DNA of 64,000 nt from Acidobacteriota bacterium (GTDB taxonomy: Bacteria > Acidobacteriota > Thermoanaerobaculia > Multivoradales > JAGPDF01), in NCBI GenBank assembly GCA_045862895.1, contig BTUO01000007.1, positions 67,615-131,614 on the forward strand, given 5' to 3'. Of this stretch, positions 31,561 to 61,475 are shown piece after piece. Below the pieces are notes generated by a model. It made no database searches, had not been told where the DNA came from, and saw only the letters and a list, made by a program, of their open reading frames with translations. The position numbers and the translations under genes were made by a program. Each line of letters begins with the position of its first letter. Positions within the stretch are counted from its first letter, which is position 1.

Positions 31561-31645
31561 GGTACCGGGGCCTACGGAACGCGAATAGCCGCGAGCAAGT
31601 CTCGCCGCAATTGCTGGTCGTCCTCCATCCGAAATGAATCCAGGC

Positions 31646-32056
31646 TCACTGGATCCCCACGGCACTGCCAGACTGACTTGCCGTCTCAATTGCGCCGGCG
31701 AGCACGTCTAGGAGATTCGCGCCGTCCGATGTTACAAAGTAGTCTGCCAAGCTTTGTATTTCGTCGCTGATCTCGCTTCCCCATGGCGGATGTGCCGTCA
31801 AGTCTTCGAAATCCCAAACAACTTGCGACGGAGGGATCGCCGCAAGCGACCTTCGTATTTGGGCGAGCTCCAGTAATGCCTCCTTGAGTAGGCCTGGCTC
31901 CAAGCGGCCTGAGTAGAGGCCATTCATGATTGCTGGATACAAGCTTCCCCAGTCCTCATGTTCAAGCAGAACGAAGATCGTGGAGAAGAAGGACTTGAGG
32001 AACGAAGCCGACCCAATCTCATACCGTTTGCGACCAACACAAAGGGCAACACTCAT
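31646..32056 (-). CDS. putative RHS immunity protein
   Basis: A 136-aa ORF immediately downstream of the RHS gene, overlapping it by 4 nt. GC is markedly lower (about 50%). Composition is normal (MSVALCVGRKRYEIGSASFLKSFFSTIFVLLEHEDWGSLYPAIMNGLYSG...). This is the canonical position for cognate immunity genes. Confidence 0.6.
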   Translation of the reverse strand: MSVALCVGRKRYEIGSASFLKSFFSTIFVLLEHEDWGSLYPAIMNGLYSGRLEPGLLKEALLELAQIRRSLAAIPPSQVVWDFEDLTAHPPWGSEISDEIQSLADYFVTSDGANLLDVLAGAIETASQSGSAVGIQ

Positions 32057-35000
32057 GGATCCGCCCGTTGCACTACGACATTATCTGCATGAATAAGACC
32101 ATCTGACTTCTGGACGATCCGATCTAGCATTCTCTGAAGTAGCACGTCGTTGACCTGTTGTCCCCTGATGTCGATGATCACGCCCTGCTGCATTCCTTCC
32201 GGCAGATTTCTGGCTCGAGATTCGCTTTGGCCCACTACGTCCCGCACCAGTCTCCAGCGGCCCTTAGCTGTCGTCAAGTCGTAATTCTTCACGTCAACCG
32301 AGAGCATCATCTGTTCGCTGGCGTAGTCAGGTCTAACACTTCCTCTAGTTCCATAGCTGACACGGCTTCCTCCGAAGAAGGAGGGCTCAGACTCGAATCC
32401 GAACTGGGCGAGATCGTCCGCGGGACCGGCCTGCGCCGCCTGCCAACTTGGACGAATCGGCGGCGTGGAGCGCTCAGCCGAACTCCCAAGAGCGGGAGCG
32501 CTTTGGGTCGTCGAGACCTCGGAAACTGCCGCGCCACCACTTGTTGAGCTCTCTCCAACGACCGCACTCTGAACACGAACTGGAACGGAAGTCGTCGTTG
32601 TTCCGAAGGGCACTCTCGGCGCTCCTCCGAGCGGCGCAACCGCCTCACTGAAGCCGGCCTCGATTCCGGCGAAGTCGACGGAGAGCGCTCGGGTGGTCAG
32701 GCGACCCGCACCGCGCGCGAGAGCGCCCGCCCCTTCGATGCCACCTGCGACGGCCAGCGCGTCGGCGGATCCGATCTCTCCACCGACCATCCCGGATTGG
32801 AAGTACTCGCCCTTTGCCTCGTGGGCTTCGATCTTCTGGATCGCCACCGCATGAGCGTCGACGATCGTGTCGACCGGATGGCTGATGAAGTCCGCCAGAG
32901 CTTCCGCACGCCCCGCGTTTCGCTCGAACGCCCCTGGTAGCGCCATGCCGGAGGCGTTGTCGGCCGCGAGCGACAACAGGCCTACGGCCGTGCCGCCCAA
33001 CATCTTGGCTGTACCGACAGCCCCCCCCACCCCTCGCTGAAGGTTCTTACCGGCGTTCCGTGGGTCGTACATCCCAACGAGGGTGCCCACGGCCACGTCC
33101 TGCACGAACTGCAGATCACGACCGAGCTCTTCCCAGCTGTAAAGGCCCAGAGGATCGGTGAATCGAACCGGACTCGCGTTGGCGTAGAGGAATCGATGCA
33201 AGCTTGGCGGCGTCTCCAGGACGCCGCCGAACGGATCCTCGTTCAGGAACCTCCCGAGCTCCGGGTCGTAGAACCGCGCTCCGAAGTAGTAGAGCCCGGT
33301 CTCCTCGTCCCGCTGGTGCCCGGTAAAGCCGAAAAGGTTGAAGCTGTCCCCGGCCTGGCTTCGTAGGTTCCCCCACGCATCCCACCGGAACCGCGCCTGG
33401 AGCGTTCCGTCCGGCTTCGACAGGCTCGCCACGCTCCCCAGCCCGTCGAACAAGTAGAACTGCCGCCCTTCGACCGCGTGGTCGAGGCTCAGGAGCCGAT
33501 CCGGCCCCCACTCGTACTTCGCGATCGTGATCCCGGCGAGGTCGGTCTGGAGCAACAGGCTCCGCTCGTCGTAGACGAACCGGAAGAGACCGCCCGGGCC
33601 CGACTTGCGCGTTCTCAGGCCGTCGTAGCTGTAGCCGTAGGTCTCGAGCAGGCCGGTTGAGGTCGAGACCTCGACCAGCTGGTCTCGGACGTCGTAGATG
33701 AAGCTGCTGATGACACCGCTCTGGACCGCGGTCTTCTCGATCTGGTTGCCGTTGACGTCGTAGGCGTAGTTCGTGTTGTTGGCCGGCTCGACGCTGTCCG
33801 TCACCGAGAGGAGGAAGTCCCGCTCGTTGTAGCCGTAGGTCTTGTTCGAGGTGATCGTGCCGGTACCGGTGTCGGTCGTGACCTCGGTCTGCCGATTGCC
33901 CACACCGTCGAGGGTGTAGACCACCGTCTCGTCCGGGTAGTGGACCTCGGTCAGCCGGTCGGCGTCGTCGTAGACGTAGGTGGTCGTCTCTGGGGCGCCG
34001 CCGTTGGTCTCTTCCTGGCTCGTCCGGTTGCCGTTCCGGTCGTAGGCGTAGACGTAGCTCGATACCAGGGCGGTGTGCTGGCGGTTCTCGATCGAGGTCA
34101 CCCGGTTCGCCCGGTCGTAGCCGTAGGCGGCCGTCGCACCGTTCGGGTAGGTGATCCGCTTCAGCAGCGAGTTGCCGAGGTACTCGTAGAGCGTCGCGCC
34201 CGTGCCCGGTGGCAGCACCGACTGCAGCCGGTTCAGAGCGTCGTGCTGGTAGAGGGTCGTGCGGCCGTCCGGGTCCGTGAGGCGATTGCGGTTGCCCGCG
34301 GCGTCGTAGCCGTAGGTGAGGAGCTCCCCTTCCGGGTCGGTCTTCGTCCGCAGCCGGTCGAAGGCGTCCCAGGTCTGGCTCGTCGTCCGCGTGCCCGACG
34401 GGCCCGAATAGGTCTCGGTCACCGTCTCGACGTTGCCGTTGCCGTCGTAGGCGGTCGCGATCGACTGGAGGTCGTCGCCCCGCGGCGGGGTCGGCGGCGG
34501 GTAGGTCGCCAGCGTCTCCCGGTCGAGCGCGTCGTACTGCCAGGAGAAGGCCTGGCCGAGCGGATCGGTCAGGCCGGTGCGGTTGCCGTTGGCGTCGTAG
34601 CCGTAGCTCTCCTCGGCCGCGACCCCGGCGACTTGCGGGTAGATCTTCCTGGTCAGCCGCTCGAGCGCGTCGTACTCGAAGCTCGTCGTGTGCGAGTTGT
34701 CGTCGGTCTGGGAGGTGCGGTTGCCCGACGGGTCGTAGCCGTAGCTCGTCAGGTGGCCGAGCGGGTCACGGACCGAGGTCAGGCGGTTGGCGGCGTCGAA
34801 GCCGTAGCGGAAGGCGCCGGGGAAGGGGGACTCACACGGCTCGGCACCGGCGAGCGCCGAGAACGCCTCCGGCTCGAAGCGGGCGATCCGGTTGCCGTTG
34901 CCGTCGTAGCAGGAGGCTTGCTCCTCGTCGTCCGAGGAGTTGCCCGGATCCATCAAGCGCTTCTCGCGCAGCTGACGGCGGCGCAGGTCGTAGCTCCACT

Positions 35001-38000
35001 CGGTGACCCGCCCCTCCGGGTCGATGCGGCGGATGCGGTCCCCGAGGTCGTCGAGCGCGAAGCGGGTGATCGCCGCCAGCGGGCGGTTCTCCGACTTCAG
35101 CAGGTTCCTCTCGTCGTACTCGAAACCGGTCGTGTGGCCCCGGGCGTCGGTCGTGAAGATCCGGTTGCCGTTGCCGTCGTACTGGTTCGACTCGAGCGTG
35201 ATGCCCGACCGCGTCGTCGAAAGGAGGCGGTTCTCCCGGTCCCACGCGAACGAGGTCCGAATCCCCCGCCGGTCCGTCGCCGACAGGCGGTTGCCGATCG
35301 CGTCGTAGGTGAAGCTCTGGAACGTCCCCACCGCCGCCGGATCGTCGATCCGGACCAAGCGGTCGAGCTCGTCGTAGTCGTAGCTCGTGACGAAGTCGCG
35401 CCGGTTCTGCTCGGTCTTCTTGTTGCCCGCCAGGTCCCAGGACAGGATCGTGTCGTAGCCGAACGGCGCCGGGTCGATCGTCCGCGTCAGGCGATTGAGA
35501 GCGTCGTACTCGTACTCGGTCGTGAAGCCCCGCGCGTTCTCGTGGGTCAAACGGTTGCCGGCGACGTCGTAGGTGAAGGCGAAGTCGCGGTCCTCCGGCA
35601 GGTGCTCGGCGACCAGTCGGTCGAGCGCGTCGTACTCGCGGGTCAGCTCGTTGCCGCTGGCGTCGGTTTCCCCGATGACGTTGCCCCGGGCGTCGTAGTC
35701 GGCGGTCGACAGCGCGCCCAGCTCGTCGGAGCTCTCCGTGCGGCGATTCAGGCCGTCGTAGACATGGGTGACGACGTTGCCGTTCGGGAGCCGCTCCTCG
35801 ACCACGTTGCCGTTGCCGTCGTGGGACCACTCGGTGACCACGTCGCGCGCCGGGACCGTGAACTTGTTGAGCACCTCGGTGCGCCGGATCCGGCGGTTGC
35901 GCTCGTCGTAGTCGGAGGTGACCAGCACGCCGCGGCGATCGACCTCGCGCACGAGATTGCCCACGGCATCGTACTCGTAGGTCCAGGCCTTCCCCTCGGC
36001 ATCCTCGCGCCGCCGCACCAGGCCGCGCTCGTCGTAGAGGACCTTGCGGACCTGGTCGTTCGACTCGAAGGTGCCGTTCGGCAGCTCGCGCTGGTTGTAG
36101 CGCCGCTCCTCTTCGCGGCGGTCCGGGTCGACGAACAGCCACTCCGTGACCGCTGCCTGGCCGGCCCGCCACTCCGGCCGCGTTTCCCGGATCCTGCGGT
36201 CGAGCTCGTCGTAGTCGACGAGCGTTTCCCGGTCGAGCGGGTCGCGCAAGGCGACGACGTTGCCGTTGCCGTCGAGCAGCTTCTCGATCCGCTGCGCCAG
36301 ACCGCTCGGATCGCGAATCACCGCGATCTCCCGGTTCAGCGCGTCGTAGACCTTCTCGGTCAGGCGCGGCTCGAAGGCCGGGTCGGTCGTGTCCGAAACC
36401 GTCTCGAACCGCAGGTTGCCGACAGCGTCGTACTGGTAGACGGTCCGGCGACCGTGAGGCTCGTCACGACGTTCGAGCCGGCCGGCGTCGTCGTAGTCGA
36501 AGATCGTGTCGTGCCGCGGCGTCTGCTGGTCGAACCAGGTCGACTCCAGCGTCTTGTTGCCGGCAAGGTCGTAGTCGAGGATCTTCGTCCCCTGCTCGGC
36601 GTTCACGATCGACGCGACGTTGCCTTCGAGGTCCAACGTCGTCACGGTCGAGCGGTTGCGGGCGTCGACGTCCGTGCGCGTTCGCGACGCGTCGTCGTAG
36701 ACCACCCGCTCCTCGGCGGGCGTCGCCTCGCCCTCGACGAGCGGGTGAACCGTCCGCACCCTCCGGTCGAGGACGTCGTACTCGAAGGTCGTCGCGTGGA
36801 ACCGTGCGTCGGTCCGCGAGACCATCCGTCCGCGTGCGTCGAAGGCGCTGACCGTCTTGTGGTTCAGCGGGTCGTGGACCTCGGTGAGATTGCCGGTGGC
36901 GTCGTATCGGAATCGCGTGGTCGAGCCGCGGTGATCCGTGGTCGACGCCCGATCGCCGTTCGGGAAGTAGTCGTGCCCGATCGTCAGGGTCCTGGCGCCG
37001 GCGTCGACGTCGGTGACGACGACCGACTCCGCGAGCAGATTGCCGCGCGCGTCGTACTCGAAGGTGGTAGTGGCGCCGTTGCGGTCGGTCCGGGTCGCTA
37101 GCCGGTCCTTGATCGGCAGCTCGAACTCCGAAGGCGGCACGTACGTGCGGCTCTCGACGTAGGTGTGCGCGCCGTTGTCGACGTCGATCACCTCCACCGA
37201 CTCGGAGAGCAGGTTGCCATGCTCGTCGTAGTCGTATTCCGTCCGGACGCCGTTCGCATCCGTCCGGGCGGTGACCAGGACGTCGTCGGGTGTCCACTCG
37301 GTGACGGTGAGCTGGTCGAGGGGATCGATCTGCCGGATCGTCGCACCGTAGCGGTTCTGGACGTAGCGCCACTCCTTGCCCCGCTCGTCGGTGACGACCG
37401 TCTCGGTCTCTTCGGCCCGCGCCTCGAGCCCGGCCAGGTCGAAGGCGAACTGCTTCACTCCCCCCCGCGGCTTGGTGATCGACTCGATCGAGATCCGCTG
37501 GACGAGCACCCCCGCCGCTCCGACGGTGACCGGCAGGTACTCGAAGAGCGTCTCCGCCGCCGAGATCTCGTCTCGCGCCTCCACCAGGACCTTGCGGTCG
37601 TCCCAGAACGGATTCCGCAGCTCCCAGCGATAGCTCTCGACCCGACTCGGACTGCCGTCCGAGTGGGTCTCGCGCTCCGCACGAATCAGGGTTCCCCACA
37701 CGGGATCGTAGGTGAACGTCACCCGGAGGCCGTCGGGACCCGACACCGAGACGAGAACCTCGCCGACCCACTGCGCGAAGCTCCGGCGTTGGTAGGCGAA
37801 CGTCAGCTGGCGGCCGGCGTCGTCGACGACGGCCGCCAGGCGGAACGGACTCTCGCCTCCGCTCGACGGCTCGTAGACCAGCGTCACGCGATTGCCGTTG
37901 GGGTCTTCGACGAAGGCGAGGCGCCAGCGGGTGTCGTAGTCGTAGACGTAGTGGTAGCGCCGGCCGCCCTTGGCGAAGAAGTCGAAGGTCAGGGTGCTCC

Positions 38001-41000
38001 AATTCGCGCGGAGCGTGCCGTGGTAGCCGCGCAACGGCCGCAAACCGCCCTCGCCGTCGTCGGCGAAGCGCATTCCGGAGCCCTCGCCGCCCACCACCAT
38101 GATGTCGCCGCAAGGGAGCACCGTGACGAACGACTGCCAGTTGTGCGACCAGCCCGGTCCCAGCGAACCCGGGTCGTACACGTCGCTCGAGGAGAACGTG
38201 CGTGAGAACTCGAGATCGATGCCGCGGGCCGGGATCGAGACGTCCTGTCGCGACAACACGAGGTGGCCGTCGAAGGCGTCGACGCCGCCGACGAGCGCGT
38301 GCCCGACCGCCAGGGAATCTCGCGTCACGAGCTCGAAGCGCGCGAAACCCCGTTCGATCTCGACGTGTCCGTCAGCGGTAGAAACGCCCCGCAGCTCCCA
38401 CTCGTACTCGCCCGGCAGCAGGTCGGAGGTCAGGATGTCCAGGTCATGGGATCCGGCTGGCTCCACGCCTCCGGCAAGCAGCGTGATCTCACTGCCGTCG
38501 TACTGCGGCGCTCCTCCGAGCTCGCGATAGATACCGCGAAAAACGAGCGAGACGTTCGCCTCGTAGCCCGTACGGTAGTGGAACTTCGCGGGTTGCTCGC
38601 AGACCCGTTCGTTGACCAGGTCGATGTCCTGACCGAGGAAGAGCTGGCGATCGAGCTCCGAGAAGAGCCGCTGCGAGAATGGCAGCAGTAGCTCGGAGGA
38701 TCGCATCTCGGCCTCGGTTCCCCGGTTGAGGACGAGCTGTGCCGAGTAGGTGCGCGCCTGATCGAACTCGTAGCCGCGCTGCACCGTCGCCTGGCCTGCC
38801 CCGGACCGGGGGCTCGCGGCGGCGACGCCGATCTCGTCGCCGTCCTCGAGCAGGACGATCTCGGCCGTTCTGGCCCGGTAGTCCTCGGGCAGGATTCGAT
38901 ACGAGAGAACCAACTCCTCCGCGAGTCGGCCGTCGTCGGTCAGAACGATCGGGAGATCGGCAATTGGATCGAGCGCCGCGTCGAGCGCCCAGACGCCGTT
39001 CACGAGGTAAGGACCAAAGGTCTCGGGCCCACTCGGCATGCCGAAGAAGTCCGTGGTGACCTCAACCTCCAGCGAGTGGAATCCAACGGCGGGACCCGTC
39101 GCGAGCTGCGTCTCGTAGGACGGGCCCTCGACGAGGATCGGTGGTGTCGCCGAGCCTCCATTCGAGACCTCGAGCTCCAGAGCGGCCTCGATCACGGCCC
39201 ACTGCCCGTCTCCCGACTGGCCTGGATAGGTTTCTCCTCCACCGCCCGGCATCGGGAAGTTGCCGTCGGCCTGGACGAACGCCGCGACGGTCATCGGAAT
39301 CGCCCGACCAAAGGTCGATCCCGGCGACGTCGCCTGGATGTTCTCTCCGAGCTCGTTGATCAGCCACCACGACGCGACGTCGACGCGGCGCCACGGGCTA
39401 CATTCTCCTGTCGTACTGCTCTGCGTGTAGAGGACGCCGTACTCGAATACCTGCGGATCGAACCCCCCTGCCCATGTCGAATAGGTGTAGCTGGCGGCGA
39501 AGGCGCTACCCGTCACCACTCCGATGGGGATGCCGTACGAGGAGGTCGCTCCCGTGTACTCTGCAACCTCGCAGCCCAGCGGATCGCCCGGGAACCAGCT
39601 GCATTCGCGTGAATCGAACACCGCGCCCGGCTGAGGGCTGGATGGAGCGTTGGTGCAGGACTCGTCCTCGAACATGTCGCTGAAGGACGCGCTGACGTCG
39701 ATGTTCGAGATCGGGTTGCCGTGGGAGTCCTCGACGACGAAAACCATCGTGTCGACCCAGGAGGCGGCCCGGTCCACGACGAAGTAAGTCTCGTCACTGT
39801 CCGTGCGCCGCAGTGTCGCCGGTGGTCCGGGGAAACCGAAGGCCTCGATCGGCGCGTCGACCGGAATAGCTCCGGAGGAGCTCGCCACGACCGCGTCGAT
39901 GACGTGCGCCAGCGCGCGGGTGGAATAGGCGTCTCCGTCGTCGCGCAGCAGGTAGACCGGTTCGAGCGAGGTGTCAGTGCCGAGTCGGAAGGGAACCGCC
40001 GCGACGCCGGTCCGGTCGGTGAGCACCGTCACTTCGTCGCCCGGCTCCCCCTCGAGCGGCTCGAAGCGGCCGTCGTCGCGCCCGGTCGTGAAGGTGACCG
40101 CGGCACCCCGAACCGGCCGTCCCGCGGCGTCGCGGACTTCGACCGCGAGCTCGACCGGGAGCAGCGTACCGACCGTCCCGTACTGGCCGTCCGTCGCCGT
40201 GATCTTGACGATCGTCGCCGCCGACATCGGGTCGGGATTGGGCTCGCCGTCGTAGGGCGCGGCGAGCGCCTCGGCGAGGAACTGCAGAACCCAGTCTTCC
40301 GGTGCCGCCGTAGTCGCGCCGCCCGCGAGGCCGCCCGAAAGGTAGTAGCCGGCCGCGCCGGTCGCGGGGTCGTCGACGCGGAAGACCGAGCCGCTCCAGG
40401 CGTCGCGCGCGACTGCGGTGCGCGGCACCTCGATCGTGGCGCCGGCGAGCGCCCAGCGCTCGATCTCGGCCTCGACCGCGGGCGGATGGTCGAGCAGCGC
40501 GAGCATCGCGGCGACGTTGCCGGCGTCGATCGTCTCGACCGGGATGCCGGCGGCGCGCGCGAGCCCGAGGCCGTGGTCGGCCGAGATTGCCCCGACCAGG
40601 AACTCGTCCTCGAACACGAAGCGCTCGAGCGCCGAGCCCTGGAGCGCCGCGAAGCGCTGGTAGTCGATCGCCTCCTCGGCGTCGCCGCCGCGCGCGACCG
40701 GATCGGTCGCACGCAGGGCGGCGTCGAGGGTCACCCCCTGCCACTCGAGCCCTTCCGGGATGCCGGCGAGGTGGGTGACCTCGACCGCGTTGGCGACCAA
40801 CGCGACCGAGGGCAGCGGCGTCGCCAGGGCGACGTCGAGCAGGCCCGCGAGCTCGCGCTCCGCGACGTCCCAGCGTTCGGCGAAGCGGTAGGCGAGCGAG
40901 GAGAGCAGGCGCGCGGCGAGCTGCTCGGCGTCGGAGGGGTCGCCGCCGTCGTCGGCGCGACCGTCGGCGCGCGGCCCGCCGACCGCGAGCGCCTGGTAGG

Positions 41001-54800: not shown

Positions 54801-57800
54801 GTCACGGCCGTCCCACTCGATCGACTCCTCCTCCGGCTGTGAGTGGCTCCGTGCGAACGTGCGCACCAGCACGTCGCGGTCATCGTAGATCCGAGTGTCG
54901 ACGTGGAGCGGCTCGAGCGCCCGATAGTGGATCGTCGTCGTCTCGAGGATGCCGTCGCCGTTGGGCGAGAAGACCGTAGGCGAGACCCAGAAGTCGGTCA
55001 CCGAGGGCGTGTCGGTCGCGAAGACGTGCTGCCGGTCGGTGCGGCGGTTGCCGGCGCGGTCCTCGACCGACAGGCGCACGTCGTAGGCGCCGGGCGCGGG
55101 CGGCACCCAGGTCAGGAAGGCCGCGTCGAAGACCTCCGTGGTCGAGGCGGGAGCGACCGGCGTCCAGCTCCCCGGCTCGGTCGCCGGGGCGTACTCGATC
55201 CGGTAGCGGAGGAAGTTGCGGTCGGCGGCGCTGCCCTCGAGCAGGAATCCGGGTCCGTTGGGCGAGCGCCGAGCCCGAAGCTCGGTGCCAAGGTTCAGCA
55301 GCGATCGGAACGCGAAGTAGTCGAGGCCATCCTCCGGGTTCGTGCACGGGTCGACCTCGGGATCGGCCGGTCCCCACGATTCGAAGAAGAGCGCTCGGCC
55401 GTCGGCGCTGAACGTCGGAACCTCGAACACCTCGTAGCCGGGAAACAGCGACGTCCGCCGCGCGTCCTCGTCGAGCTCGACACCGACGAGCGACTCCCCG
55501 TACCAGAACCGGTCGGTGGAGCCCCAGAGGAGCGCGCGGTCGAACGGCGCCCAGATCGGCTCGTGTCCGACCTGGAGCGGCGGCGCGTCGCCCTCTCCCA
55601 TCCCGGCGAGCGATCCGCCGCCACCTCCCCCCGACGACGGTTCGGTCCACGCCACGTGGCGGGCCTCGCCGCTCGCCAGATCGACCACCACGAGCTCGCC
55701 GATCCGGAGGTCTTCGGGTAGCGACCACTCGATCGCCAGCGCGACCTCGCGCGGCGAAGTCCGGGCGCGGGACAACTGCCTGGAATTGACGACGGCACTT
55801 GGCTCGGGCGGTTCGGTCTCGACCAGGTAGTTTCCGATCGGCTCGCCGTCGCGGCCGAAGACGTGCAGGCGGCCGGGCTCGGGATCGAGGACGACGATCC
55901 GCGTCCCGTCGAAGCTCCAGGCCGCGTTCCACCAATCATTGCCGGTGCCGCTCTCCAGAGCGACCAGCAGGCGGCTCGATTCTTCTCCGAGGTCGACGAG
56001 CCAGGCTTCGGCGCCCGCCGACGCACCATCGACGAAGAGAACCAGCCGCGATCGGTCCGGCGAGAAGATGTAGGGCTCGTATTCGTAGGCAAACCAGAGC
56101 GAGCTCGCATCCGGGAAGATCGAGTGCGCGAGCGAGGGGTCTGCGATCGGGACGGTCACCAGCGTGCCGTCCTCGCCCTCGACGAGCAGTCGGTCGCTGT
56201 TGCCATGAAATCCGATCGGGAACGGCGCCGTCGAGGTCGACTGGGGGAGCCGTGCGAGTTGGGTCCCGGCGGCGTCCGAGAACCAGGTCTCCCGCCGAGA
56301 CGTGCAGGGCGAGCCGCGCCAGGTGGCGAAGGCGATCCGCGAGCCGTCGGGCGAAACGCGCAGCGAGGTCTCGATCAAGTCACGCGGGCACGCCGGCAGC
56401 TGCTGGCCGAGTTGCGCTTCGGTGACGACCTGGGTGATCGCGCTCTCCTCGGTGGCGACGCGATAGATCCCGGAGGGATAGGTCGGGTTCCCGTCGACAA
56501 CGACGAACGCGGTCCTGGCGTCGCTCGTCGGCCGAGCGTCGCGGATCGGCGGCAGCTCGCAGGTCGCGTTCTCGACCCACTCGTACGGGGTGCCCAAGGC
56601 GTGGAAGAGCGAAGTCCGATCGGTATCGAGCGTGGCGCGCGCCGCACCGAGCCGCTCGCCCGAGCCCGCGTCGACGACCGTCAGGCGGTACTCCCCGTCG
56701 CGGGCGACGTCTCCGTCCGCGTCGGTGCCATCCCACTCGAAGCTGCCTTCGCCGCCGCTCCACGCGGGATTCGTCTCGCGCCGGACCAGGCGATCGCGAA
56801 CGTCGCGGATTTCGACGGCGAGCTCTACGGGAGCGCCCACCCGGAACGCGAAGGTGGTCGAGTCGAGGACTCCGTCGCCGTTGGGCGAGAAGAAGGGAGC
56901 GCTGACGTAGGAGTCGTCGTCCTGCACCGTGACCTGGATGCCGGCCGAGTTGTTGGCCTCGTCGCCCTCGATCAGCACCTCGTCGGCGTCGACGACGACG
57001 AAGATCGCGGCCTGGCCCGTCGGCTGATCGAAGGTCCACCCGAGAGTCGCGATGCCGCTGGCCTGGCCGGAGACCGGGTCCAGCGTCGAGTCGGCGAGCA
57101 GGACGCCACCAGCGCCCGGATCGCCGAGGAAGGCCCGGACCGCGACCGGAGCCGCGTCCTGCTCGCCGAGGTTTGCGACCTGTACGCTCAAGGTCACCGG
57201 TTCGCCCGGCACCGGGAAGGCCGGATCGAGCGAGAGGCTTCCCGCGCTGATCGCCAGATCCGGAAGGGAATGGACTTCGACGATCTGGAACGTCGAGTTG
57301 TCGGACTCCGTGTGCTCCGCGACCAGCCCCTCGGGATCGACCATCGCGTGGATCACACGATCGCCGGCGTCCGGCACCTCGGTCCAGACCGCCGCGACCT
57401 CTGTCGATCCGCCCGCGACGATCGGCGGCAGCGTCGCCGCAGCGATCTCGATGCCCGACGACGGTGGACCATCGTAGAAGGCCACCCGCGTCTCGCCGGT
57501 CGTGGCGCCGCCGTTGTTGCGCACCTCGATCGAGAGCTCGAGCGGCGAGCCCTCGCGTCCCGGCAGCGGCGAAACCGCGAAGTCTCCCGAAGCCACGGCG
57601 AGGTTGGGCACCGCCAGCGGCGTCGACGGGAAGGCCAGCGACGCCGAGTTGTTGGTCTCGTCGCCCTCGGGAACAAGGTCGTCCGGATCGAGCGTCGCGA
57701 CGAACTGCAGGTCTCCCTCGAGGTCGACGCGCCAGACGACGGTGCGCTCCGCGCTCTGCCCGGGCTCGATCTGGAGGATCACCTCCGGCAGCTCGCGGGT

Positions 57801-60566
57801 CGTCGTCCCGTCGGTCACCGCGAAGGCGGCGGTGAAGGAGCCGCCACCGACCGTGCCCCGGTTGCGCATCCCGACCTGGAACCGGACATCGGCGCCGGGA
57901 TGGGCCGGGCCGTCGAGCAGCGTGAGGTCGGCTCCCGTCACCTCGAGATCGATCGCCGGCGAGGTGGTCACCGTCGCGCTCGCCTGGTTGTTGTCCTCGT
58001 CGGCTTCGACCACCACCGCGTCCGGATCGAGAACCAGCGTGAAGGCGAAGGAGCCGGGCTCGTCCAGCGTGTCGAAGAAGCTCACCGGCGCGGACGCGCG
58101 CGCCGGCAGAGCGATCGTCTGTTCGCCGAGCACCTCGCCGCCGGCGCCCTCGCCGCGATGGAGCCGGATCAACGCTTCGGGGACGTCGGTCGAGCCCAGG
58201 TTGCGGACCGTCGCGACGATCGCGACCTCGACCGGAAGCACCGCCGGGTGCGGCGGCAGGAAGGAGATCTCGTCCGCTCGCACCGAGAGGTCCGCCTCCA
58301 CCGGCGCGGGATCGATCTCGACCGGCAGCGTCGCGCGGTTGTTGCTCTCGCTCGCCTCCTCGATCGCTTCGTCCGCATCCAGGATCACGTGAACCACGTG
58401 CGTTCCCGGGTCGAGCCCGGTGGTATCCCATGCGATCGCCAGCGTCGTCGAAGCGAGGGTCGCGAGCTCGGAGAGCTCGACGTCGGGGCCGATCGGTTGC
58501 CCGCCGGAGTCCGGGTCCCCGTCGAAGAGCCGCAGCACCGACGCGGGCGCGGCGAGCGCGCCCGCGTTGCGGACCGGGATCGTCAGCTGCACGAGCTCGC
58601 CGACGACCGGCGCCGCGGGCTCGGCGGCGAGCGCCCCGGCGAACGCCAGGTCCGGGAAGCGGGCCTGACTCAGCGTGGCGGCGACTCGTGCGGTCGTGTA
58701 GACGCTGCCCTCCCAGCTTCCCTCGATCGTCTGCCGTCCGTCGAGATAGGCGACCGCGGCGGCCAGGTCGACCTCGCCGGCCTCGTCGAGAGCCCGGATC
58801 GTGTCGACGACCTGTGCCGTGTCGTGCGCCGTGCTCGGGCTGTCGCCGAAGCCGCCATCCGGGTTCTGACGTCCGGCGATCCAGGAGAGCGCGTCCGGAC
58901 CCGGCGCCGAAACGCGGTCGAGCGCGACCAGGGCGGCGAGCGCCGCGGTCGTCGGGGCGATGCGGCTCGCACCGTCCGCGGCCGCCCCCCAGCCGCCGTC
59001 CGGGTTCTGGGCGTCGACGAGCCAGTTGCCCGCGCGGACCAGGGCAGGATGAGAGCTCGCGAGGCCGCTCGAACGGAGCGCTTCGATCGCCATCGCCGTG
59101 TCGATCGGATCACTCCCGTAGCGCGCCCCCGCACCCCAGCCGCCATCGGAGTTCTGTCGCGCCAGCAGGGCGCTGGTCAGCGCGGAGTTCGACGTGTTCG
59201 GCTGGAGGCGCCCGAGTGCAGCGAGCGTCCGCGCTGCGTAGTCGCTGCTCGGCGGCACCTCGAGCTCGAGCCAGTCCGCGGCCTCTGCGCCCCGCACGAA
59301 CAGCGAGTCGAGCTCGGTCAGGACGCTCGCCGCGACCGCCGTATCGCGCGTGCTCGTCTCGGGCTTGTCTTGCCAGGAGCCGTCGGACCCCTGTCGCGAG
59401 CGCAGCCAGGCGAGCGCGTCCGGGAGGCTCGCGGATCCGCCTCGAGGATCTCCCGGGTCGACGGGCCCGGGTCCCCCTCCCCCCGAACCTCCCGGCGGCG
59501 CGAGCGTCACTTCGAGGCTCGCGCGACCGCCCGTCAGGATCGCAAAGCGGATCTCGAGCGCGCGCCGGAACCGCTCGAGCGCCAGCAGCTCCGCGTCGCT
59601 CGGCGTCGCGCCCGGGCGCACCAGGTAGAGCACCGCGGCGCGGAATCGATCCGGACTCTCCCCGGCGGCGGGAACGCGCGGTCCCTCGGCCGCGACGATG
59701 TCGTCGATCGTCACCGTCACCGCGCCACCCTGAATGGTCTCCCCTGGCTGGCCACGCCGCTGCGGTTCGATCGTGGGGTTGTCGATCAGCAGCAGGGGTG
59801 GGATCTCGTCGGGTCCTGCGAACCCGGCGAGGTAGAGGTCGAGCGGCCCCCAGACCTTGTCGACGGCGAGCGAGGTGAAGCTGCCGTTGCCATCGTCGCG
59901 CCAGTCGTTGCCGTAGAGCACCGACCCTTGCGAGTCGTACAGATAGCTCCAGTGGCTCTCCCCGGTCGTCAACGCGCCCGAAAGTGAGCCGTCCGGGAGG
60001 CGAAACCGGAGTCGTGTCCCCCAGGTGTGCAGGATCTCGTGGGTCGCCGCGACCAGCAGGAGCTCGAAGCCCGGATCCAGCGGATCGAGCGCGTAGCGTG
60101 ACAGGGCAGCCAGATCGACGTAGTTGCGCAACCGGCCGGCGCTGCCGAAATCGTCGCTGAGGTCGTAGGCCGGAAGGTTGATCCCCTGAACGTCGTTGCG
60201 AACCAACCAGGCCATCGCGGTCGCCCCGTCGGTGTCGAACTCGAAGTCGGTCGCGACCAGGAGGAAGTCGTAGTCGTCGCCGTGCTCCTCGTAGAAGGCC
60301 CGCGCGACGTCCATCCGGGCACCGAAGTTGGGCTCTCCGTCGCCGAACGAACGGTCGTAGTCGCCGAGCACCTCGAACACCGAAACGCCGCCGCGATCCT
60401 CGATCGGAACGACGAGCGCCTCCGGTGCCTGCGGCGCTCGCGAGGGAGAACGCTGCCCATCGGCGATCACGACGCAAGATGCCTCGGCGGCGACCGGATC
60501 CGCGCCGGCACCGAACGCGGCGACCAGCGCAGCGACGAGCGCGACCGAGACGCGCCGGAAGTTCAT
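42792..60566 (-). CDS. giant (5924 aa) secreted multidomain surface/adhesin-like protein
   Basis: MNFRRVSVALVAALVAAFGAGADPVAAEA is a signal peptide. An N-terminal HExxH motif (ATHEILHTWG, with an E about 27 aa later) follows. Next come prenyltransferase / alpha-macroglobulin-like toroid repeats (SDGSWQD, QNSDGGWG, QNPDGGWG, QNPDGGFG). The body carries multiple CARDB-like modules, FlgD-Ig-like FSPNGDG modules, PD40/TolB-like SPDGxxxA repeats, FN3-like modules (DVIGYxVDRDG), an F5/8-discoidin-like segment, and three Calx-beta-like modules. The C-terminal NDFNLFLWGDL...GRLAAGGDVDL domain is choice-of-anchor-A-like. The ORF is continuous. Confidence 0.85.
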   Translation of the reverse strand: MNFRRVSVALVAALVAAFGAGADPVAAEASCVVIADGQRSPSRAPQAPEALVVPIEDRGGVSVFEVLGDYDRSFGDGEPNFGARMDVARAFYEEHGDDYDFLLVATDFEFDTDGATAMAWLVRNDVQGINLPAYDLSDDFGSAGRLRNYVDLAALSRYALDPLDPGFELLLVAATHEILHTWGTRLRFRLPDGSLSGALTTGESHWSYLYDSQGSVLYGNDWRDDGNGSFTSLAVDKVWGPLDLYLAGFAGPDEIPPLLLIDNPTIEPQRRGQPGETIQGGAVTVTIDDIVAAEGPRVPAAGESPDRFRAAVLYLVRPGATPSDAELLALERFRRALEIRFAILTGGRASLEVTLAPPGGSGGGGPGPVDPGDPRGGSASLPDALAWLRSRQGSDGSWQDKPETSTRDTAVAASVLTELDSLFVRGAEAADWLELEVPPSSDYAARTLAALGRLQPNTSNSALTSALLARQNSDGGWGAGARYGSDPIDTAMAIEALRSSGLASSHPALVRAGNWLVDAQNPDGGWGAAADGASRIAPTTAALAALVALDRVSAPGPDALSWIAGRQNPDGGFGDSPSTAHDTAQVVDTIRALDEAGEVDLAAAVAYLDGRQTIEGSWEGSVYTTARVAATLSQARFPDLAFAGALAAEPAAPVVGELVQLTIPVRNAGALAAPASVLRLFDGDPDSGGQPIGPDVELSELATLASTTLAIAWDTTGLDPGTHVVHVILDADEAIEEASESNNRATLPVEIDPAPVEADLSVRADEISFLPPHPAVLPVEVAIVATVRNLGSTDVPEALIRLHRGEGAGGEVLGEQTIALPARASAPVSFFDTLDEPGSFAFTLVLDPDAVVVEADEDNNQASATVTTSPAIDLEVTGADLTLLDGPAHPGADVRFQVGMRNRGTVGGGSFTAAFAVTDGTTTRELPEVILQIEPGQSAERTVVWRVDLEGDLQFVATLDPDDLVPEGDETNNSASLAFPSTPLAVPNLAVASGDFAVSPLPGREGSPLELSIEVRNNGGATTGETRVAFYDGPPSSGIEIAAATLPPIVAGGSTEVAAVWTEVPDAGDRVIHAMVDPEGLVAEHTESDNSTFQIVEVHSLPDLAISAGSLSLDPAFPVPGEPVTLSVQVANLGEQDAAPVAVRAFLGDPGAGGVLLADSTLDPVSGQASGIATLGWTFDQPTGQAAIFVVVDADEVLIEGDEANNSAGIQVTVQDDDSYVSAPFFSPNGDGVLDSTTFAFRVGAPVELAVEIRDVRDRLVRRETNPAWSGGEGSFEWDGTDADGDVARDGEYRLTVVDAGSGERLGAARATLDTDRTSLFHALGTPYEWVENATCELPPIRDARPTSDARTAFVVVDGNPTYPSGIYRVATEESAITQVVTEAQLGQQLPACPRDLIETSLRVSPDGSRIAFATWRGSPCTSRRETWFSDAAGTQLARLPQSTSTAPFPIGFHGNSDRLLVEGEDGTLVTVPIADPSLAHSIFPDASSLWFAYEYEPYIFSPDRSRLVLFVDGASAGAEAWLVDLGEESSRLLVALESGTGNDWWNAAWSFDGTRIVVLDPEPGRLHVFGRDGEPIGNYLVETEPPEPSAVVNSRQLSRARTSPREVALAIEWSLPEDLRIGELVVVDLASGEARHVAWTEPSSGGGGGGSLAGMGEGDAPPLQVGHEPIWAPFDRALLWGSTDRFWYGESLVGVELDEDARRTSLFPGYEVFEVPTFSADGRALFFESWGPADPEVDPCTNPEDGLDYFAFRSLLNLGTELRARRSPNGPGFLLEGSAADRNFLRYRIEYAPATEPGSWTPVAPASTTEVFDAAFLTWVPPAPGAYDVRLSVEDRAGNRRTDRQHVFATDTPSVTDFWVSPTVFSPNGDGILETTTIHYRALEPLHVDTRIYDDRDVLVRTFARSHSQPEEESIEWDGRDESGVHVRDGVYRIELQDLEQFVEVDRTAPEVSLSWSNGGLVCLDPGRLPNDRHAAWSFGLLAGALDPPHDPPGVELEVGVGANPATWLDALLSPGEVPAPECAPNCPGISVSDYVNRRYRARATDAAGNERVELLELAEEELAIGAVKLQLQDPVSGLPTGWELVGCTAAPVEVLSEGFLRFEVGETARAVLAQVYVQYRAPGAPVWSETANAGIFEVGALDVAGAVPDRYFDVAWDPEPILGAGNVELRLRAIDSQGAEHLSGTVSVQVRRRISTRFRVADVAPLGDEPPEPGDLLEQALAAGAIEPGLGLFVIVRLESATPPESVAAYLESDDDPRYSEWRRFDPVFVLPAGDVREYLFVIEDWQLCSGYRAYGTARLGGGLELVTAVETTETSCFAASLQLEPERAEVCGEPAPGRIRARAGSRLHSGSPPPSLQLLTLARRLPDGSEDLLGSFNQPVPGELYDFEIAMAELPEGEHRFVARVTSVDGDTMESERLGVVDRTPPVLEITNPLEGQQLCSSEIEIRPGVFRRGFEIVGTVDEAWIEGSGGYSPRLSFDTDPEPRSWSNREGMDFLSTESPRPFRSVVDPGVAGEVTVRAAVWDRGGNLICGQRRFVADAAVGGVAGVSDDLISPDGDGVLDETVGTFVATQPVTLDVDVHPAVFDTTLGRWRVVGPRVRRLVDDIPVSDTRQFVWRGEDDALALVPDYDYGLVVTAVDGCGNEWSRVLHVRVDATPPVAQIVSPAPGDPLPMLVPIAGIATDLNFLEWRLEFGVGADPTTWIEVATDDLQKHPPSEPFGTWNTYGLSGEHTLRLRATDRGGLRNEHRVTYDLTGPERLFSDLTALPPLFSPNGDERRESTTARVIVELESRLTVEIRTETDTLVRRLALAQLAAPGASTFLWDGADTGANAAPDGRYRVRVLAELEANPAITQDEEILVELDRTPPAVTVERPADGYVTGEGQVVGSIADERLVSWSVALASDPVDPVWTDLASGSAAQSSAPLGSLEGLAEGDYALRVRAADAGEIQVEQIVPFVVDNTPPVVDLLAPANGDLLGAAGGAVAIRGAVAEEHLAEWRVELGAGTAPTTWIPLVSGADLPAGETLLDWLPTGVADGLYTLRLIAEDRAGQSAVDSVQLTIDNLGPQVAIDSPAAGAWVREPAPILGTAADAHLESYTLAVAPAGTEAFTPIGGGASSIVGGQLHLWAALPSDGDYRLRLAAIDLAGNAASTEVALSVDTHPPGPTTLTATLENGSDARLEWSPSPEPDVIGYVVDRDGARLTPAPVPAPTLLDAALAEGSHAYVVRAVDAAGWEGAPSNVATVVVDVTPPTVAISAPSDATTVSGVVVISGTAYSVDDFREYRLTVRAEPGGEPALLRRSPVPVVAAAIHEWSTAGLPEGASYRLRLEGEDLAGNVAVSEVVVTVDNVAPAPPTGLTATVVGGTGDVQAAWNANAEADLLGYLLYRDGVLVNAPGGVEGDLRRYALSETSYLDAGRPDGTFSYLVAAIDQAGNVSGPSAPAEVTIDRHPPRAEIVVPVDGARFEEPLFVRAESDDEDVASVVFEWRVAGSGTWAAFGSTDVQPPWETTFDPLAFEPDLEHGDFELRAVATDDNGATDPAAPAILVTYADLTPPSAPLDLVAAVDGGDVTLDWSASPESDVIGYHVDRAGADGTSERLTATPVATPGYLDEALADGPYEYAVIAVDDSDNESEPSAPAPARVATPRLTQPYTPTRQPVAALSGVSAYLGTAAGEIASGTGTAPIPPVGTDSDGGFVWSDLPLADGVNTLTVRVTDPAGNRTRDAAVDVTVGAPPTAPASVVASPGAGANEVVVTWDANPEPDVVGYRPWRDGSSVLAPATIADATASASTESFPPGSAEMAIDGDGATYWAPWVDESEVLAGQSLEVTWPETRFVARVEIDWLATSELQFAPTDFDLEAEFGGVWVPLATWRGNTDPQQHWLASDLYPTDRLRVVLWASPLDGAHTQPVRLAELRAVHQPILAATTLTETVPDGVHEYRVSALTTLGFESALSEPATIGVGDTTPPEPVVLAAEVTGSDVALSWTASPSPDVERYEVWRDGTNIGERTDLGNRTWLDAGLPNGTYLYVVVAVDGAGHSSPPSNAVEALVAVELPAPPTDLFVTPVAGGGALDLAWQPPSGPAPSGYRVHRAEVAGGPYSPVADAPAPAHRDGGLVDGSTYYYVVSALDAAGNESSASNEASGTPTDELPPPAPVLTFPAFAGAPRITLRSPIPVAGFAAEGAEIELRRNAVYAGEAVAASEFAVESLADVVWTAARLSPDGRWLWVEDDFGAAYVRRLDGPEVVDLPEGNGRVRWSADGGSAYVVDGAAVRRFDVADEALEVVAALDEARIAAPSPSGDRLAVVALRAGQSGVWVLDLDSGDWTLTVATATLDDLGEALEWSPAGTHLAWLRTTGATEIEVAEIETGLVVATLPASDGALSWSPDGAALLWTSSASGSDQVWRHDLASATSEAVTAEPGEHAMPRWAPHAASFACVRDGGEVLEVDLEDGAARTWPVELFAGIEQLEWVAGGTALVVSDLTPSRIEPPGRFEVPGVALAGGDNRLVAIARDLAGNASVPSAETLVHLRGEALPNLAVLGPELVVLPAVPLAGGMARVTVVVRNLGGAAAPASDLTAAVSGPQGFVAVLAEGLAVPPLPPGGSAVFGFDLSLPSVAGSYLAAAAVDAAGVVVEANEDDNAAERAFLVAADGTPLLELATDRTTYGEDDTVELTAALFNAGSTFDGWIEIAIEDANGFELAELEPEAVIGLEHGATLEVERTWSTEGVFAGLYQARARLFDLDGAEIAQTTAPFEIGEVFYLSVIAASERPWYTIGESAPVSGRIRYEAGNALLSGAIARLAVIDPDGVAVAQWQQPLGDLLPGAVASVVRTFATAGAEPGVHRVRVEVERGGSVLAVGEVPFELRTAPAALLGMLALSNPQPAIGEPLIAVYSVTNAGGADAFAVPIRTRLIDPATGIELARSESVIDLPAGATHAGSALFATDELGLAPYLAVLEAYWVDGGAPAWLVLDAEGFATADRTPPLATLIVPAHSGLVGAQARAQATAVDQHSTVVSVAVAVDGGDWQPLALEEATLGLWGAALAPMAEGSHSVRLRARDAWDNEALTAEHPFEVDLTPPVIVVDGVEEGGIYPEPVLPVITVEDLHPGWFVVTLDGASLPAGTPVDQEGAHTLRVLAEDAAGNRATSELHFTIEALLPEASVTAAEVVEGDATGGELSFVVTLSQAVTRPVSVTYQTVDGTATDGSDFVGAAGILTFDPGAINGAIPVSVIGDLLDEIDETLTLEIGSPQGATIGQATAVGTILDDDLPAVAVDDVTITEGDAGSQDAVVTLTLSTPGLEAVELDVATADGSATAGLDYTAVAESVSFAPGEVSATVAVPVLGDVLLEPDQTFTLELGTPSYGTLADATGLVTIVDDELCPGPELLVNPGAESPLIDGELAGWIEVVGGLWRPRWLEPVPVEGEASFFPGAVATAELVQEIDLAPYASAIDEGAQAFRFSGRVYSADEAIPDLARIVVEYRDEPGTVLDLFDSGALASPATWSVIEDERAAPAGTRRIRVRLLAERFTEPDLDAYFDALSLVSLRAAAISVGGVGVTEPAPGETAWAEFPVLLACPTDRTTAVEFVTRDGEAEAGADYEAASGTLEVPATATSAQVAVEVLGDKQLESPETFFLDLAAGSEEVVVGAEAVARIDDAGCATEPLGLANDFNLFLWGDLLQSHGDVGGRLAAGGDVDLEAVSVGESLPGRDGAALVAGDGLSFAGGRVIHGDAIYGDWAAVEGVAIPDGVLRSGAPIDFEAERAALVALSGSLATLAANGSTTLTPRGGLRLVGVDPTLNVFEIDAAQLAAATSLILRAPAGSTALVNVAGTQIIAASFPIALENVRSDHVLFNFAEAEDVVFEELVFRGSVLAPYAVLGFVEAVVEGTVVAESLKLDGQLDHAPFAGCLPPPDPVPNCIEEGACE

Positions 60567-61174
60567 CTCGGCTTCCCGTCAGGGGCTGGGCGGCGCACCG
60601 TGCGGGCGCCTTTCGGCGCGGGCGCTTCGGTCTGTACCGGAAGGGCTCCTCGCGCGGCCGTCAGACTCTCGTCGCGGGTGCGGAGGACGCGCAGCCTGGG
60701 CTCGCCGGCTCGCTCCGCGCGCAGCAACCAGACTTCGCGGATCTCCTCGAGACCTCGGGCACCTTGCGAGGGACGGAGCAGCACGCGGTCCGAGCGCAGA
60801 CCGACGACTTCGAGGGCCTCGATCTGGTCGCCCGGTCGCACCACTCGGAGGTCGCCGCCGGTGCGTCCGACGACGGCCGCTCCGGTCGCCGGATCGCAGG
60901 CGACCAGATACCAGGACTGGAGCGCCTCGAGTGGAGCGGATCCGGAAGAGAGGAGGTCGGGCGCGGTCGCCCCGGCCGGCGGTTCGCCCGGATCGCGAGA
61001 CGTGCGCTCCGATTCCTCAGTTGCCGGCGGCGCGGGAGCGGCGCCCGGAGCATCGGCGATCGCCGCCAGCGGCGACGCCGTGATCACCAGGCCGACGGCC
61101 ACCCGCGCCGCGCCGTAGCGCAGCGTCCCGGACGACCCTCGCCGCTTCGAGACTCTCCCCGTCCTTGCCACCAT
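60563..61174 (-). CDS. hypothetical secreted protein (204 aa), translationally coupled to the giant gene
   Basis: The ATG at 61174 gives MVARTGRVSKRRGSSGTLRYGAARVAVGLVITASPLAAIADA, a signal-like N-terminus. The C-terminal half (VVRPGDQIEALEVVGLRSDRVLLRPSQGARGLEEIREVWLLRA) is vaguely GspC/PilP/SAF-like. Its stop overlaps the giant-gene ATG (ATGA at 60563..60566). The upstream Arg-rich part of track ORF 60563..61588 was rejected. Confidence 0.5.
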   Translation of the reverse strand: MVARTGRVSKRRGSSGTLRYGAARVAVGLVITASPLAAIADAPGAAPAPPATEESERTSRDPGEPPAGATAPDLLSSGSAPLEALQSWYLVACDPATGAAVVGRTGGDLRVVRPGDQIEALEVVGLRSDRVLLRPSQGARGLEEIREVWLLRAERAGEPRLRVLRTRDESLTAARGALPVQTEAPAPKGARTVRRPAPDGKPR

Positions 61175-61398
61175 GCCCTCGTTCGTAGAGGACGGAAGCG
61201 CACACCGCGAACCTCGCAGTTCCGCCCGGCCACGACTCGAAGAAGACGAACTACAAGCTAAAGGACGGACGACTTTATCCCACCGGGGGCGGTCCGTCGA
61301 GGTGCCCCTCTCTGTCGGTGCCTTCGTCCACCGAACTGATGAAAACAAACGGCATTTCGAAGCGAACCCGATCCGCGCTCGATCCGGCCCAGCGCTCG

Positions 61399-61419
61399 GC
61401 TCTCGGCTCTCGGCTCTCG
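61399..61419. repeat. (GCTCTCG)x3 tandem heptamer repeat in the upstream region of the operon
   Basis: Read directly as gctcggctctcggctctcggctctcga. Confidence 0.6.
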
Positions 61420-61475
61420 ACCTCCCCTCGGAAGGAGTCCCGATCCCAACGGCGCCGCGCGCGGAGCCGGCTCTC

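Follow-up and report, generated by a model that had tools for sequence, protein, structure and literature searches.

The 64,000-nucleotide (nt) stretch analyzed here, which we call the window (positions 67,615 to 131,614 of contig BTUO01000007.1, assembly GCA_045862895.1, from an Acidobacteriota bacterium), carries on its minus strand four overlapping genes that encode a small PilP/GspC-like protein, a giant surface protein of 5924 amino acids (aa), an RHS toxin, and the immunity protein Imm70. Considered as a whole, this arrangement is best explained as a polymorphic-toxin cassette with surface-stalk delivery, a reading that we hold to be somewhat likelier right than wrong. The toxin belongs to a known class, and what is new here is the recognition of previously unlisted signature partner genes for that class. 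The cassette, its parts, and the gap in front of it are as follows.

61175..61475, minus strand: intergenic region 5' of the cassette, a 300-nt gap presumed to hold the promoter
60563..61174, minus strand: small gene, 203 aa, within an open reading frame (ORF) of 60563..61588, the start being most plausibly ATG 61174
42792..60566, minus strand: giant gene, 5924 aa, ATG start
59502..60419, minus strand: HExxH domain of the giant, aa ~50-355 (~300 aa), with HEILH at aa 176-180 (nt 60027-60041)
58587..59429, minus strand: alpha/alpha-toroid of the giant (prenyltransferase / squalene-cyclase / TED-like), aa ~380-660
43644..58589, minus strand: stalk of the giant (best-scoring stretches), with a CARDB array, FlgD_ig, Big_13, F5/8C, fn3, a PD40/TolB-like propeller, and three Calx-beta domains
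42870..43583, minus strand: choice-of-anchor A / ice-binding-like adhesive domain of the giant, aa 5662-5899 (pAdhesive_15 1.3e-45, TIGR04215 1.8e-50)
32053..42801, minus strand: RHS toxin gene, 3582 aa, GTG start
38302..42720, minus strand: N-terminal head of the RHS protein, aa 28-1500, with an inactive transglutaminase (TGase) core and Ig-like Big_1
33142..38283, minus strand: DUF6531 plug-like domain (aa 1507-1579) and RHS/YD shell, ending at a PxxxxDPLGL cleavage motif
32056..33141, minus strand: variable C-terminal region, aa 3221-3582 (362 aa), with a Gly-rich hydrophobic segment, a linker, and a terminal nuclease-like domain of ~140 aa
31646..32056, minus strand: Imm70 immunity gene, 136 aa, ATG start

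The original prediction, which was made from the letters alone, had proposed four minus-strand genes linked by stop/start overlaps, and its coordinates and all of its overlaps hold. The stop of the small gene overlaps the start of the giant in the ATGA at 60563-60566, the giant/RHS junction reads ...atcGAGGAGGGAGcGTGcgaGTGA, with the GTG at 42801 overlapping the giant's TGA (which ends at 42792) by 10 nt, and the ATGA at 32053-32056 gives a 4-nt overlap between the RHS gene and the Imm70 gene. The Shine-Dalgarno sequence that had been placed at the 10-nt overlap (42792..42801) was found there as well, as an SD-like GAGGAGGGAG within the giant's last codons, ahead of the GTG at 42801; an alternative in-frame GTG at 42795 would instead give a 4-nt GTGA overlap with the giant's stop. 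The four genes are presumably co-transcribed, and the promoter is presumed to lie in the gap between the start of the small gene at 61174 and the upstream AMP-ligase gene, which ends at 61476. A sigma-70 consensus scan of 61175-61475 returned no match, and over 30-61.7 kb matches to promoter and terminator consensus sequences were about as numerous as in shuffled sequence, which makes such scans uninformative on co-transcription. The GC content is ~71% over the window, 63% over 30-34 kb, and 70-74% elsewhere in the cassette; the stretch of low GC (30000-34000) comprises the toxin tip, Imm70, an orphan RHS fragment, and ParDE, which fits horizontally exchanged modules. On heuristic inspection, a basic n-region followed by a hydrophobic core is present at the N-termini of the small protein, the giant, and the RHS protein.

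The RHS protein is a member of the inactive-TGase toxin class that was described in 2012. Its N-terminus, MRVTGRGLAWALLSIAGSTALASAAAAQG, has two Arg residues and then a hydrophobic core at aa 11-22, in agreement with the Sec signal peptide that had been proposed for it, the call being heuristic in our analysis. The Transglut_core family is matched at aa 245-384 (2e-10; nt 41650-42069). The segment GNDVDQAS at aa 291-298, in which G291, N292, D293, D295, Q296, and A297 (six of the eight residues) are invariant in homologs, occupies what we take to be the position of GxCxxFA in PF01841, so that the catalytic Cys would be replaced by Asp293. For aa 901-1500 no family was returned by Pfam at E<=10, and PDB sequence searches with the TGase-head profile and with the TGase core alone yielded nothing usable. 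The RHS_repeat family is matched in 21 stretches of the protein (Pfam, 1.3e-129), DPLGL stands at aa 3216-3220, and similarity to the orthologs stops at aa ~3219-3224. Beyond this point the toxin tip is polymorphic, the C-termini of the orthologs being Tle1-like lipases, DNase-like domains, Stv, and unknown sequences. The tip encoded in the window has no match in Pfam (E<=10), NCBIfam, or the PDB; it holds ...ASEQ...VDVKNY...GRWR...DIRGQ in the order of the Tox-REase-10 signature, a comparison made by motif, and the protein of 136 aa encoded directly after the RHS gene matches Imm70 (PF15601) at 1.9e-42. The published signature consists of E, Q, [DE], ExKNY, R, and DxRG, and the Tox-REase-10 family is paired with Imm70 (PMC3482391); we accordingly predict, from motif and neighbor, that the tip is a Tox-REase-10-like nuclease domain. 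The class as defined by Zhang et al. (PMC3482391, section 19) combines a signal peptide, an inactive transglutaminase, Ig domains, RHS, and a variable toxin, and the protein in the window has a signal (heuristic), a TGase domain with a lost catalytic residue, RHS up to DPxGL with a variable tip behind it, and a cognate immunity gene.

The evidence that the neighboring giant belongs with this toxin comes from related loci. A head-motif scan with one genome per species gave 111 loci, 80 of which were kept, and the flanks of these were analyzed with tblastn and by ORF; the count of upstream giants was limited to the 66 loci in which 3 kb or more of upstream sequence was available. A same-strand, collinear giant homolog lies directly upstream of the TGase toxin gene in 54 of the 66, with 31-45% identity to the giant in the window over 1000-2760 collinear aa. 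In most of these 54 loci, a single open frame of 2400-3300 aa, that of the giant, spans the 10-kb flank from end to end; the estimated gap between giant and toxin is mostly -54 to +140 nt, and the toxin ORFs are typically 3450-3800 aa long. A second gene order, running from toxin through immunity gene and small protein to giant, was found in L171, L168, and L175 (L numbers denote individual loci) and in about 10 metagenome loci. The hosts include Thermoanaerobaculia, Holophagales, and other Acidobacteriota, metagenome-assembled genomes (MAGs) labelled 'Deltaproteobacteria' or assigned to Multivoradales, Nitrospirae, Elusimicrobia, Bacillota, Lysobacterales (Tahibacter, Dokdonella, Pseudomarimonas, and a Xanthomonas MAG), Burkholderiales (Undibacterium, Paucibacter, Rhizobacter), and Andreprevotia, and the genomes that carry the cassette range from 36 to 74% GC. 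Even an HExxH-toroid-CARDB protein of 810 aa still has an RHS remnant beside it. A search with the head in HMMER gave 1199 cluster representatives at E<=1e-30, in which, among the matches listed, the head is N-terminal, and their length mode is ~3450-3750 aa. Because the giant/RHS pair recurs in 54 of 66 related loci, and in both gene orders, chance adjacency, which the original prediction had named among the findings that would undo it, is excluded.

What accompanies the giant most faithfully is the head of the toxin. In the Neobacillus (Bacillota) locus L077, the gene for a 1552-aa protein with a toroid and a VWA domain overlaps that for a 1429-aa protein with the architecture TGase head-PT-HINT-AHH nuclease, which is followed by Imm11, and in L087 (1277 aa) and L168 (2234 aa) TGase-head proteins without RHS lie beside giants. 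Since relatives thus carry PT-HINT/AHH or no RHS behind the same head, the constant partner of the giant is the inactive-TGase head rather than RHS itself. On the other side of the pair, the toroid is the sole partner domain that the giant shares with the Bacillota version in L077.

Several genomes were also seen to carry more than one TGase-RHS gene (L070/L018/L013 on Multivoradales contig CBDFLE010000005.1, L028/L058, and L062/L068). The three copies on CBDFLE010000005.1 lie 13-14.5 kb apart; a full-length giant is directly upstream of the first only, and the third follows a giant-related ORF of 1126 aa. In L004/L036 (Thermoanaerobaculia, GCA_041394745.1) the TGase-Big-RHS gene is split into several ORFs with no upstream giant and with VapBC-type toxin-antitoxin genes flanking it, and this toxin gene is probably a decaying copy.

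The giant had been described as a CARDB/FN3/Calx-beta/PD40 surface protein with an N-terminal HExxH domain, and hidden Markov model (HMM) annotation agrees, with HEILH at aa 176: Pfam and NCBIfam give CARDB (2.6e-56), fn3 (1.3e-18), Calx-beta (7.5e-43), pAdhesive_15 (1.3e-45), FlgD_ig, Big_13, F5/8C, and PD40. Its N-terminus has no family in Pfam at E<=10, and the HExxH domain is conserved and has no close structural relative; across 23 homologs, the HExxH motif, H205, and W206 vary little or not at all, and a zincin metallopeptidase was considered as a possible identity of this domain. The toroid that follows matches SQHop_cyclase_C (9e-17) and Prenyltrans, with squalene-cyclase matches in the PDB (2e-21) and weak matches to the TED of complement C4, and homologs carry PF07678. 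A thioester or alpha-2-macroglobulin type of toroid was considered and rejected because aa 380-660 contain no Cys; the TED likeness is weak. The N-terminal module of the giant also occurs in many shorter proteins; the homolog search with the giant's N-terminus gave mostly fragments of <=1200 aa, and the context of the giants was taken from contig look-ups and tblastn.

At the other end, the TIGR04215/pAdhesive_15 domain near the C-terminus marks the giant as a choice-of-anchor A surface protein. The C-termini of the orthologs vary: besides choice-of-anchor A, they include a helical end with 'DAYNN.GC', stretches of acidic repeats, and tails of the form 'IPxx + TM + Arg-rich', in which TM stands for transmembrane. 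The giants of L034, L061, L072, L073, and L081 end in 'IP(A/G)xx', ~20 hydrophobic residues, and an Arg-rich tail, which resembles IPTL-CTERM / exosortase-type sorting signals. As some giant orthologs thus have C-terminal anchors, the N-terminal end would be the distal one; if the C-terminus of the giant in the window is likewise cell-proximal, its HExxH/toroid end would form the distal tip. In five Burkholderiales loci (L040, L043, L052, L053, L076), choice-of-anchor A is a separate ORF of 330-540 aa between a giant ORF of ~2900 aa and the RHS gene. Lysine is scarce in the window's proteins, with 6 in the giant's 5924 residues (0.1%), 3 in the first 1500 aa of the RHS protein, and 1.5% in the RHS shell; lysine depletion was rejected as a property of the system because the lower-GC orthologs have 4-6% Lys.

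The small protein consists of a basic N-terminus, a hydrophobic anchor or signal at aa 24-42, a Pro-rich linker, and a beta domain at aa 80-165 (nt 60680-60937) that resembles PilP and the homology region (HR) of GspC. In its AlphaFold2 model the core at aa 80-165 has a predicted local distance difference test (pLDDT) score of 85-94, and the top Foldseek matches are PilP of the Myxococcus type IV pilus (T4P) machine (3jc8_Pa, probability 0.96) and P. aeruginosa PilP (2lc4, probability 0.93). The family was assembled by scanning metagenome contigs with the giant N-terminal profile and iterating an HMM over the upstream ORFs: in 56 of 70 metagenome loci the giant is immediately preceded by a small homologous ORF, and the members match Pfam T2SSC in 20 of 28 cases and PilP in 10 of 28. 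What had been listed as a 204-aa secreted protein does have a Sec-type N-terminus (heuristic), but it is 203 aa long and is in fact a conserved PilP/GspC-HR-like component, as Pfam at the family level and Foldseek indicate. This likeness points to a secretin-linked route, and no family member was seen near the Bacillota (single-membrane) loci examined, which fits an outer-membrane-related role. In one metagenome lineage, a 119-aa protein predicted as a four-helix bundle lies between the small PilP-like gene and the giant (L168 10526-10885; also L169 and L170); it matches TIGR02436 (7e-42) and, weakly, Avd, the accessory protein of diversity-generating retroelements (DivGenRetAVD, 1.5e-7).

That the components of the cassette act in one pathway we consider probable. 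In the mechanism that we propose, the small protein, the giant, and the RHS toxin would leave the cytoplasm via Sec, and the membrane-anchored PilP/GspC-HR-like protein would couple the cargo to an outer-membrane secretin encoded elsewhere. The giant would then stand on the cell surface as a long Ig-domain stalk, with its HExxH and toroid end as the distal tip, and the RHS cage would be held on this stalk by the catalytically dead TGase/Ig head, most likely at the toroid-bearing end, the toroid being the best docking candidate because it is the only partner domain that is also in the Bacillota version. When the cell touches a competitor, cleavage at DPLGL would free the REase-like nuclease at the C-terminus, which would pass into the target, and Imm70 would protect sibling cells. 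Physical display of the toxin by the giant is the part of which we are less sure, its chances lying in our view a little short of even. In its boldest form, the proposal would describe a new delivery pathway, in which the PilP/GspC-like adaptor routes the fiber through a secretin, TGase-headed toxins dock on the toroid tip and act in a contact-dependent manner, and the head-partner pair, which would be represented in at least six phyla by >1000 protein clusters, is older than the divergence of single- from double-membrane bacteria; this we put forward tentatively, as rather unlikely to hold in its entirety.

Several observations weigh against the proposed mechanism. No secretin or type II secretion system (T2SS) gene was found in the window, nor within 10 kb in the relatives inspected, and an RHS cage is near the size limit of a secretin channel. 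The small protein in the window matches no Pfam family, and it scores 20 bits (E=4.7e-4) against NCBIfam GspC_delta, whose cutoff is 150. The giant of the window carries choice-of-anchor A at its C-terminus and has no membrane anchor there, which makes its orientation uncertain, and its docking with the toxin is read from genetic linkage. An upstream giant is not present in 12 of the 66 loci, among which 2 have a giant downstream, 1 has the small gene downstream, and 6 are cut by contig ends. Finally, L073 (Pseudomarimonas arenosa CAU 1598, 2-20176) was tried as a Rosetta-stone fusion and was not counted, its junction being ambiguous: giant and TGase-RHS form one stop-free frame of at least 6725 aa, with an anchor-like tail and then a signal-peptide-like stretch at the junction, and the frame may be a genuine fusion or may stem from a sequencing error or from the loss of a stop codon.

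Part of this evidence would also suit genes that are co-regulated and mechanistically independent, the giant being an ordinary adhesin or matrix protein and the RHS protein a soluble, bacteriocin-like toxin released through Sec/T2SS, with both serving close-range competition. Zhang et al. (PMC3482391) treat the class as plain Sec/T2SS without a partner, and gspG-linked Rhs proteins of Xanthomonas and Ralstonia are reported in a preprint to be active in the supernatant (10.1101/2025.05.08.652813); the 12 loci without an upstream giant and the tandem TGase-RHS copies without a giant of their own (L018, L013) likewise speak for independence. We nevertheless regard independence as unlikely, for the genes have stayed adjacent across phyla and over 36-74% GC: both gene orders preserve the pairing, stop and start codons overlap, and a Gram-positive version keeps it with another toxin scaffold. 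Moreover, the constant element is a non-catalytic head that has no obvious role in a free toxin. Alternatively, the primary role of the genes could be to build a surface fiber or a cell-cell recognition structure, made up of the giant together with its TGase-head and PilP-like companions, one subunit of which bears toxins as secondary add-ons, as the TGase-head proteins that lie beside giants without RHS or a recognizable toxin (L087, L168), the many shorter proteins with the giant's N-terminal module, and the strict conservation of the HExxH domain would allow. Most full-length members, however, are RHS toxins of ~3450-3750 aa, the Bacillota version also ends in a nuclease, and immunity genes follow the toxin both in the window and in L077, and we give the fiber still less credence than independence.

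Two further accounts would draw on known delivery machines, and in domain scans both fail the tests of their defining features. The giant could be a TcA-like translocator and the RHS protein a fused TcB-TcC cocoon, since in Tc (ABC) complexes, too, a very large partner gene adjoins the RHS cocoon gene and the encapsulated toxin is cut at DPxGL; yet neither protein has a Pfam match to TcA, TcB, SpvB, or mid-N/mid-C, both have Sec-type N-termini, the immunity gene is of the antibacterial type, and the giant consists of Ig-like domains in series, not of a helical shell with a channel, all of which renders a Tc-like complex very improbable. An equally slim chance attaches to the RHS protein being cargo of a type VI (T6SS) or type VII secretion system (T7SS) whose machinery lies elsewhere in the genome. 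Most characterized Gram-negative Rhs toxins in the literature are T6SS effectors, but this one has a signal-peptide-like N-terminus and no PAAR, VgrG, DUF1795, DUF4123, LXG, or WXG domain in Pfam or NCBIfam. More broadly, no part of PAAR, VgrG, T6SS, T7SS, Tc, two-partner secretion (TPS), or T2SS type was found in the cassette proteins or the window ORFs scanned, which bears out the earlier remark that no PAAR/VgrG/T6SS/T7SS partner is visible. Nor does the RHS N-terminus carry a fused PAAR, VgrG, LXG, or adaptor domain, a finding that the original prediction had named as one that would refute it.

Around the cassette, the window holds several other features. Directly downstream of Imm70 lies an orphan RHS-core fragment, within whose area an ORF at 30624-31334 has an RHS_repeat match, and whose frame continues into a ParD-like antitoxin, after which comes ParE (PF05016, 8e-15; ParD-like/ParE at 30340-30636, side region 30340-30840). 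The fragment marks an earlier recombination at the locus. The related cassette of L175 likewise has a ParD/ParE pair at its side (17679-18202). On the upstream side, 61476-64000 together with L002 1-8821 encodes the AMP-ligase, an FAD-dependent halogenase-like enzyme, an acyl carrier protein, and two ketosynthases, a small cluster of lipid or polyketide type, after which comes a HAMP-SpoIIE phosphatase gene. On the minus strand of positions 1-13900 of the window lies a tandem array of genes for five secreted paralogues of ~800-1000 aa with 29-42% mutual identity, most of which end in '...DGF(E/Q)(T/S)GD(T/M)(T/S)RWS'. Pfam gave no match for the five, and the two tested against NCBIfam are ELWxxDGT repeat proteins (E 6e-111 and 3e-133). 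The mechanical ORF list gives a 1917-aa ORF at 8118-13871, which probably represents two genes read in separate frames.

30921..31524, minus strand: orphan RHS-core fragment, a 604-bp copy 86.6% identical to 34885-35488 (blastn)
1-2376 (partial), 2377-5151, 5169-8114, ~8118-10930, and 10928-13879, minus strand: five paralogues

Sec-dependent RHS/YD toxins are abundant, and their route to target cells is an acknowledged gap; for bacterial teneurin-like toxins, a recent preprint calls the delivery machinery unknown (10.1101/2025.11.11.687626). The cassette offers testable candidates in the giant stalk, the PilP/GspC-like adaptor, and the non-catalytic docking head, and there are cultured carriers in Tahibacter, Dokdonella, Andreprevotia, Undibacterium, Paucibacter, and Neobacillus. 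It also suggests a possible function for the widespread secreted proteins that combine a prenyltransferase-like toroid with CARDB, and for the conserved HExxH domain. In the literature we found no description of the partnership between the giant, the TGase-RHS toxin, and the PilP-like protein, a search whose coverage is incomplete, so that an earlier description is possible. A paper on Gram-positive polymorphic toxins (PMC9424270) and a preprint on giant genes contain no description of a giant/TGase-toxin system, and Shewanella vesicle papers that mention an 'inactive transglutaminase' together with Rhs concern unrelated, separate genes.

Compared with known systems, the cassette shares parts with several. 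As in Tc (ABC) complexes, an RHS cocoon gene lies beside a very large partner, which in Tc serves target binding and delivery, but here there is no TcA/TcB homology, and instead there are Sec signals, an antibacterial immunity gene, and a partner that is an Ig-domain stalk. With CdiA/CdiB, the system of contact-dependent inhibition (CDI), the cassette has in common a long surface filament that would present a polymorphic toxin, a cognate immunity gene, and orphan fragments downstream; in contrast to CDI, filament and toxin are separate polypeptides, and neither a TPS domain nor an Omp85 partner or CdiB/FhaC-type transporter was found in the giant, the RHS protein, or the window ORFs scanned. 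WapA of Bacillus and the bacterial teneurin-like proteins likewise combine a Sec signal, a YD/RHS shell, DPxG cleavage, a polymorphic tip, and an immunity gene, but they carry their own wall, S-layer, or lipoprotein anchors, whereas here anchoring would occur in trans via the giant; no NHL or TIP domain was found here.

Links between Rhs toxins and T2SS-type components are not confined to this cassette. In Xanthomonas and Ralstonia, Rhs families of ~1700 aa are linked to gspG and the T2SS (10.1101/2025.05.08.652813) and are thus also tied genetically to a T2SS-type component rather than to the T6SS; the linked gene there encodes a pseudopilin, and no giant partner or TGase head is mentioned. 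Like GspC of the T2SS, with its HR, and PilP of the T4P, the small protein combines an anchor at its N-terminus with a Pro-rich linker and a beta domain of the HR/PilP type. It differs from GspC in having neither a PDZ domain nor a coiled coil and in ending ~40 aa past the HR core, and from PilP in having no lipobox (there is no Cys in the N-terminal 60 aa); with no gsp or pil genes nearby, its gene sits beside the presumed cargo, outside any gsp or pil operon.

The closest relative is the class of Zhang et al., with which the cassette shares an identical RHS architecture and the downstream immunity gene; the pairing of Imm70 with Tox-REase-10, predicted for the cassette, is listed for that class as well. 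The original prediction of a new RHS delivery system is supported as far as the conserved linkage of the genes goes, its mechanism being inferred, with the correction that the toxin architecture itself has been known since 2012 (PMC3482391); the giant/PilP-like neighborhood appears to be undescribed in the literature searched. Table 1 of that paper files the class under Sec/T2SS with no signature neighbor gene, and its authors proposed that the dead TGase anchors the toxin at the surface via peptide binding; here, by contrast, the toxin has two conserved neighbors, a giant protein with toroid and CARDB domains and a small one that resembles PilP/GspC.

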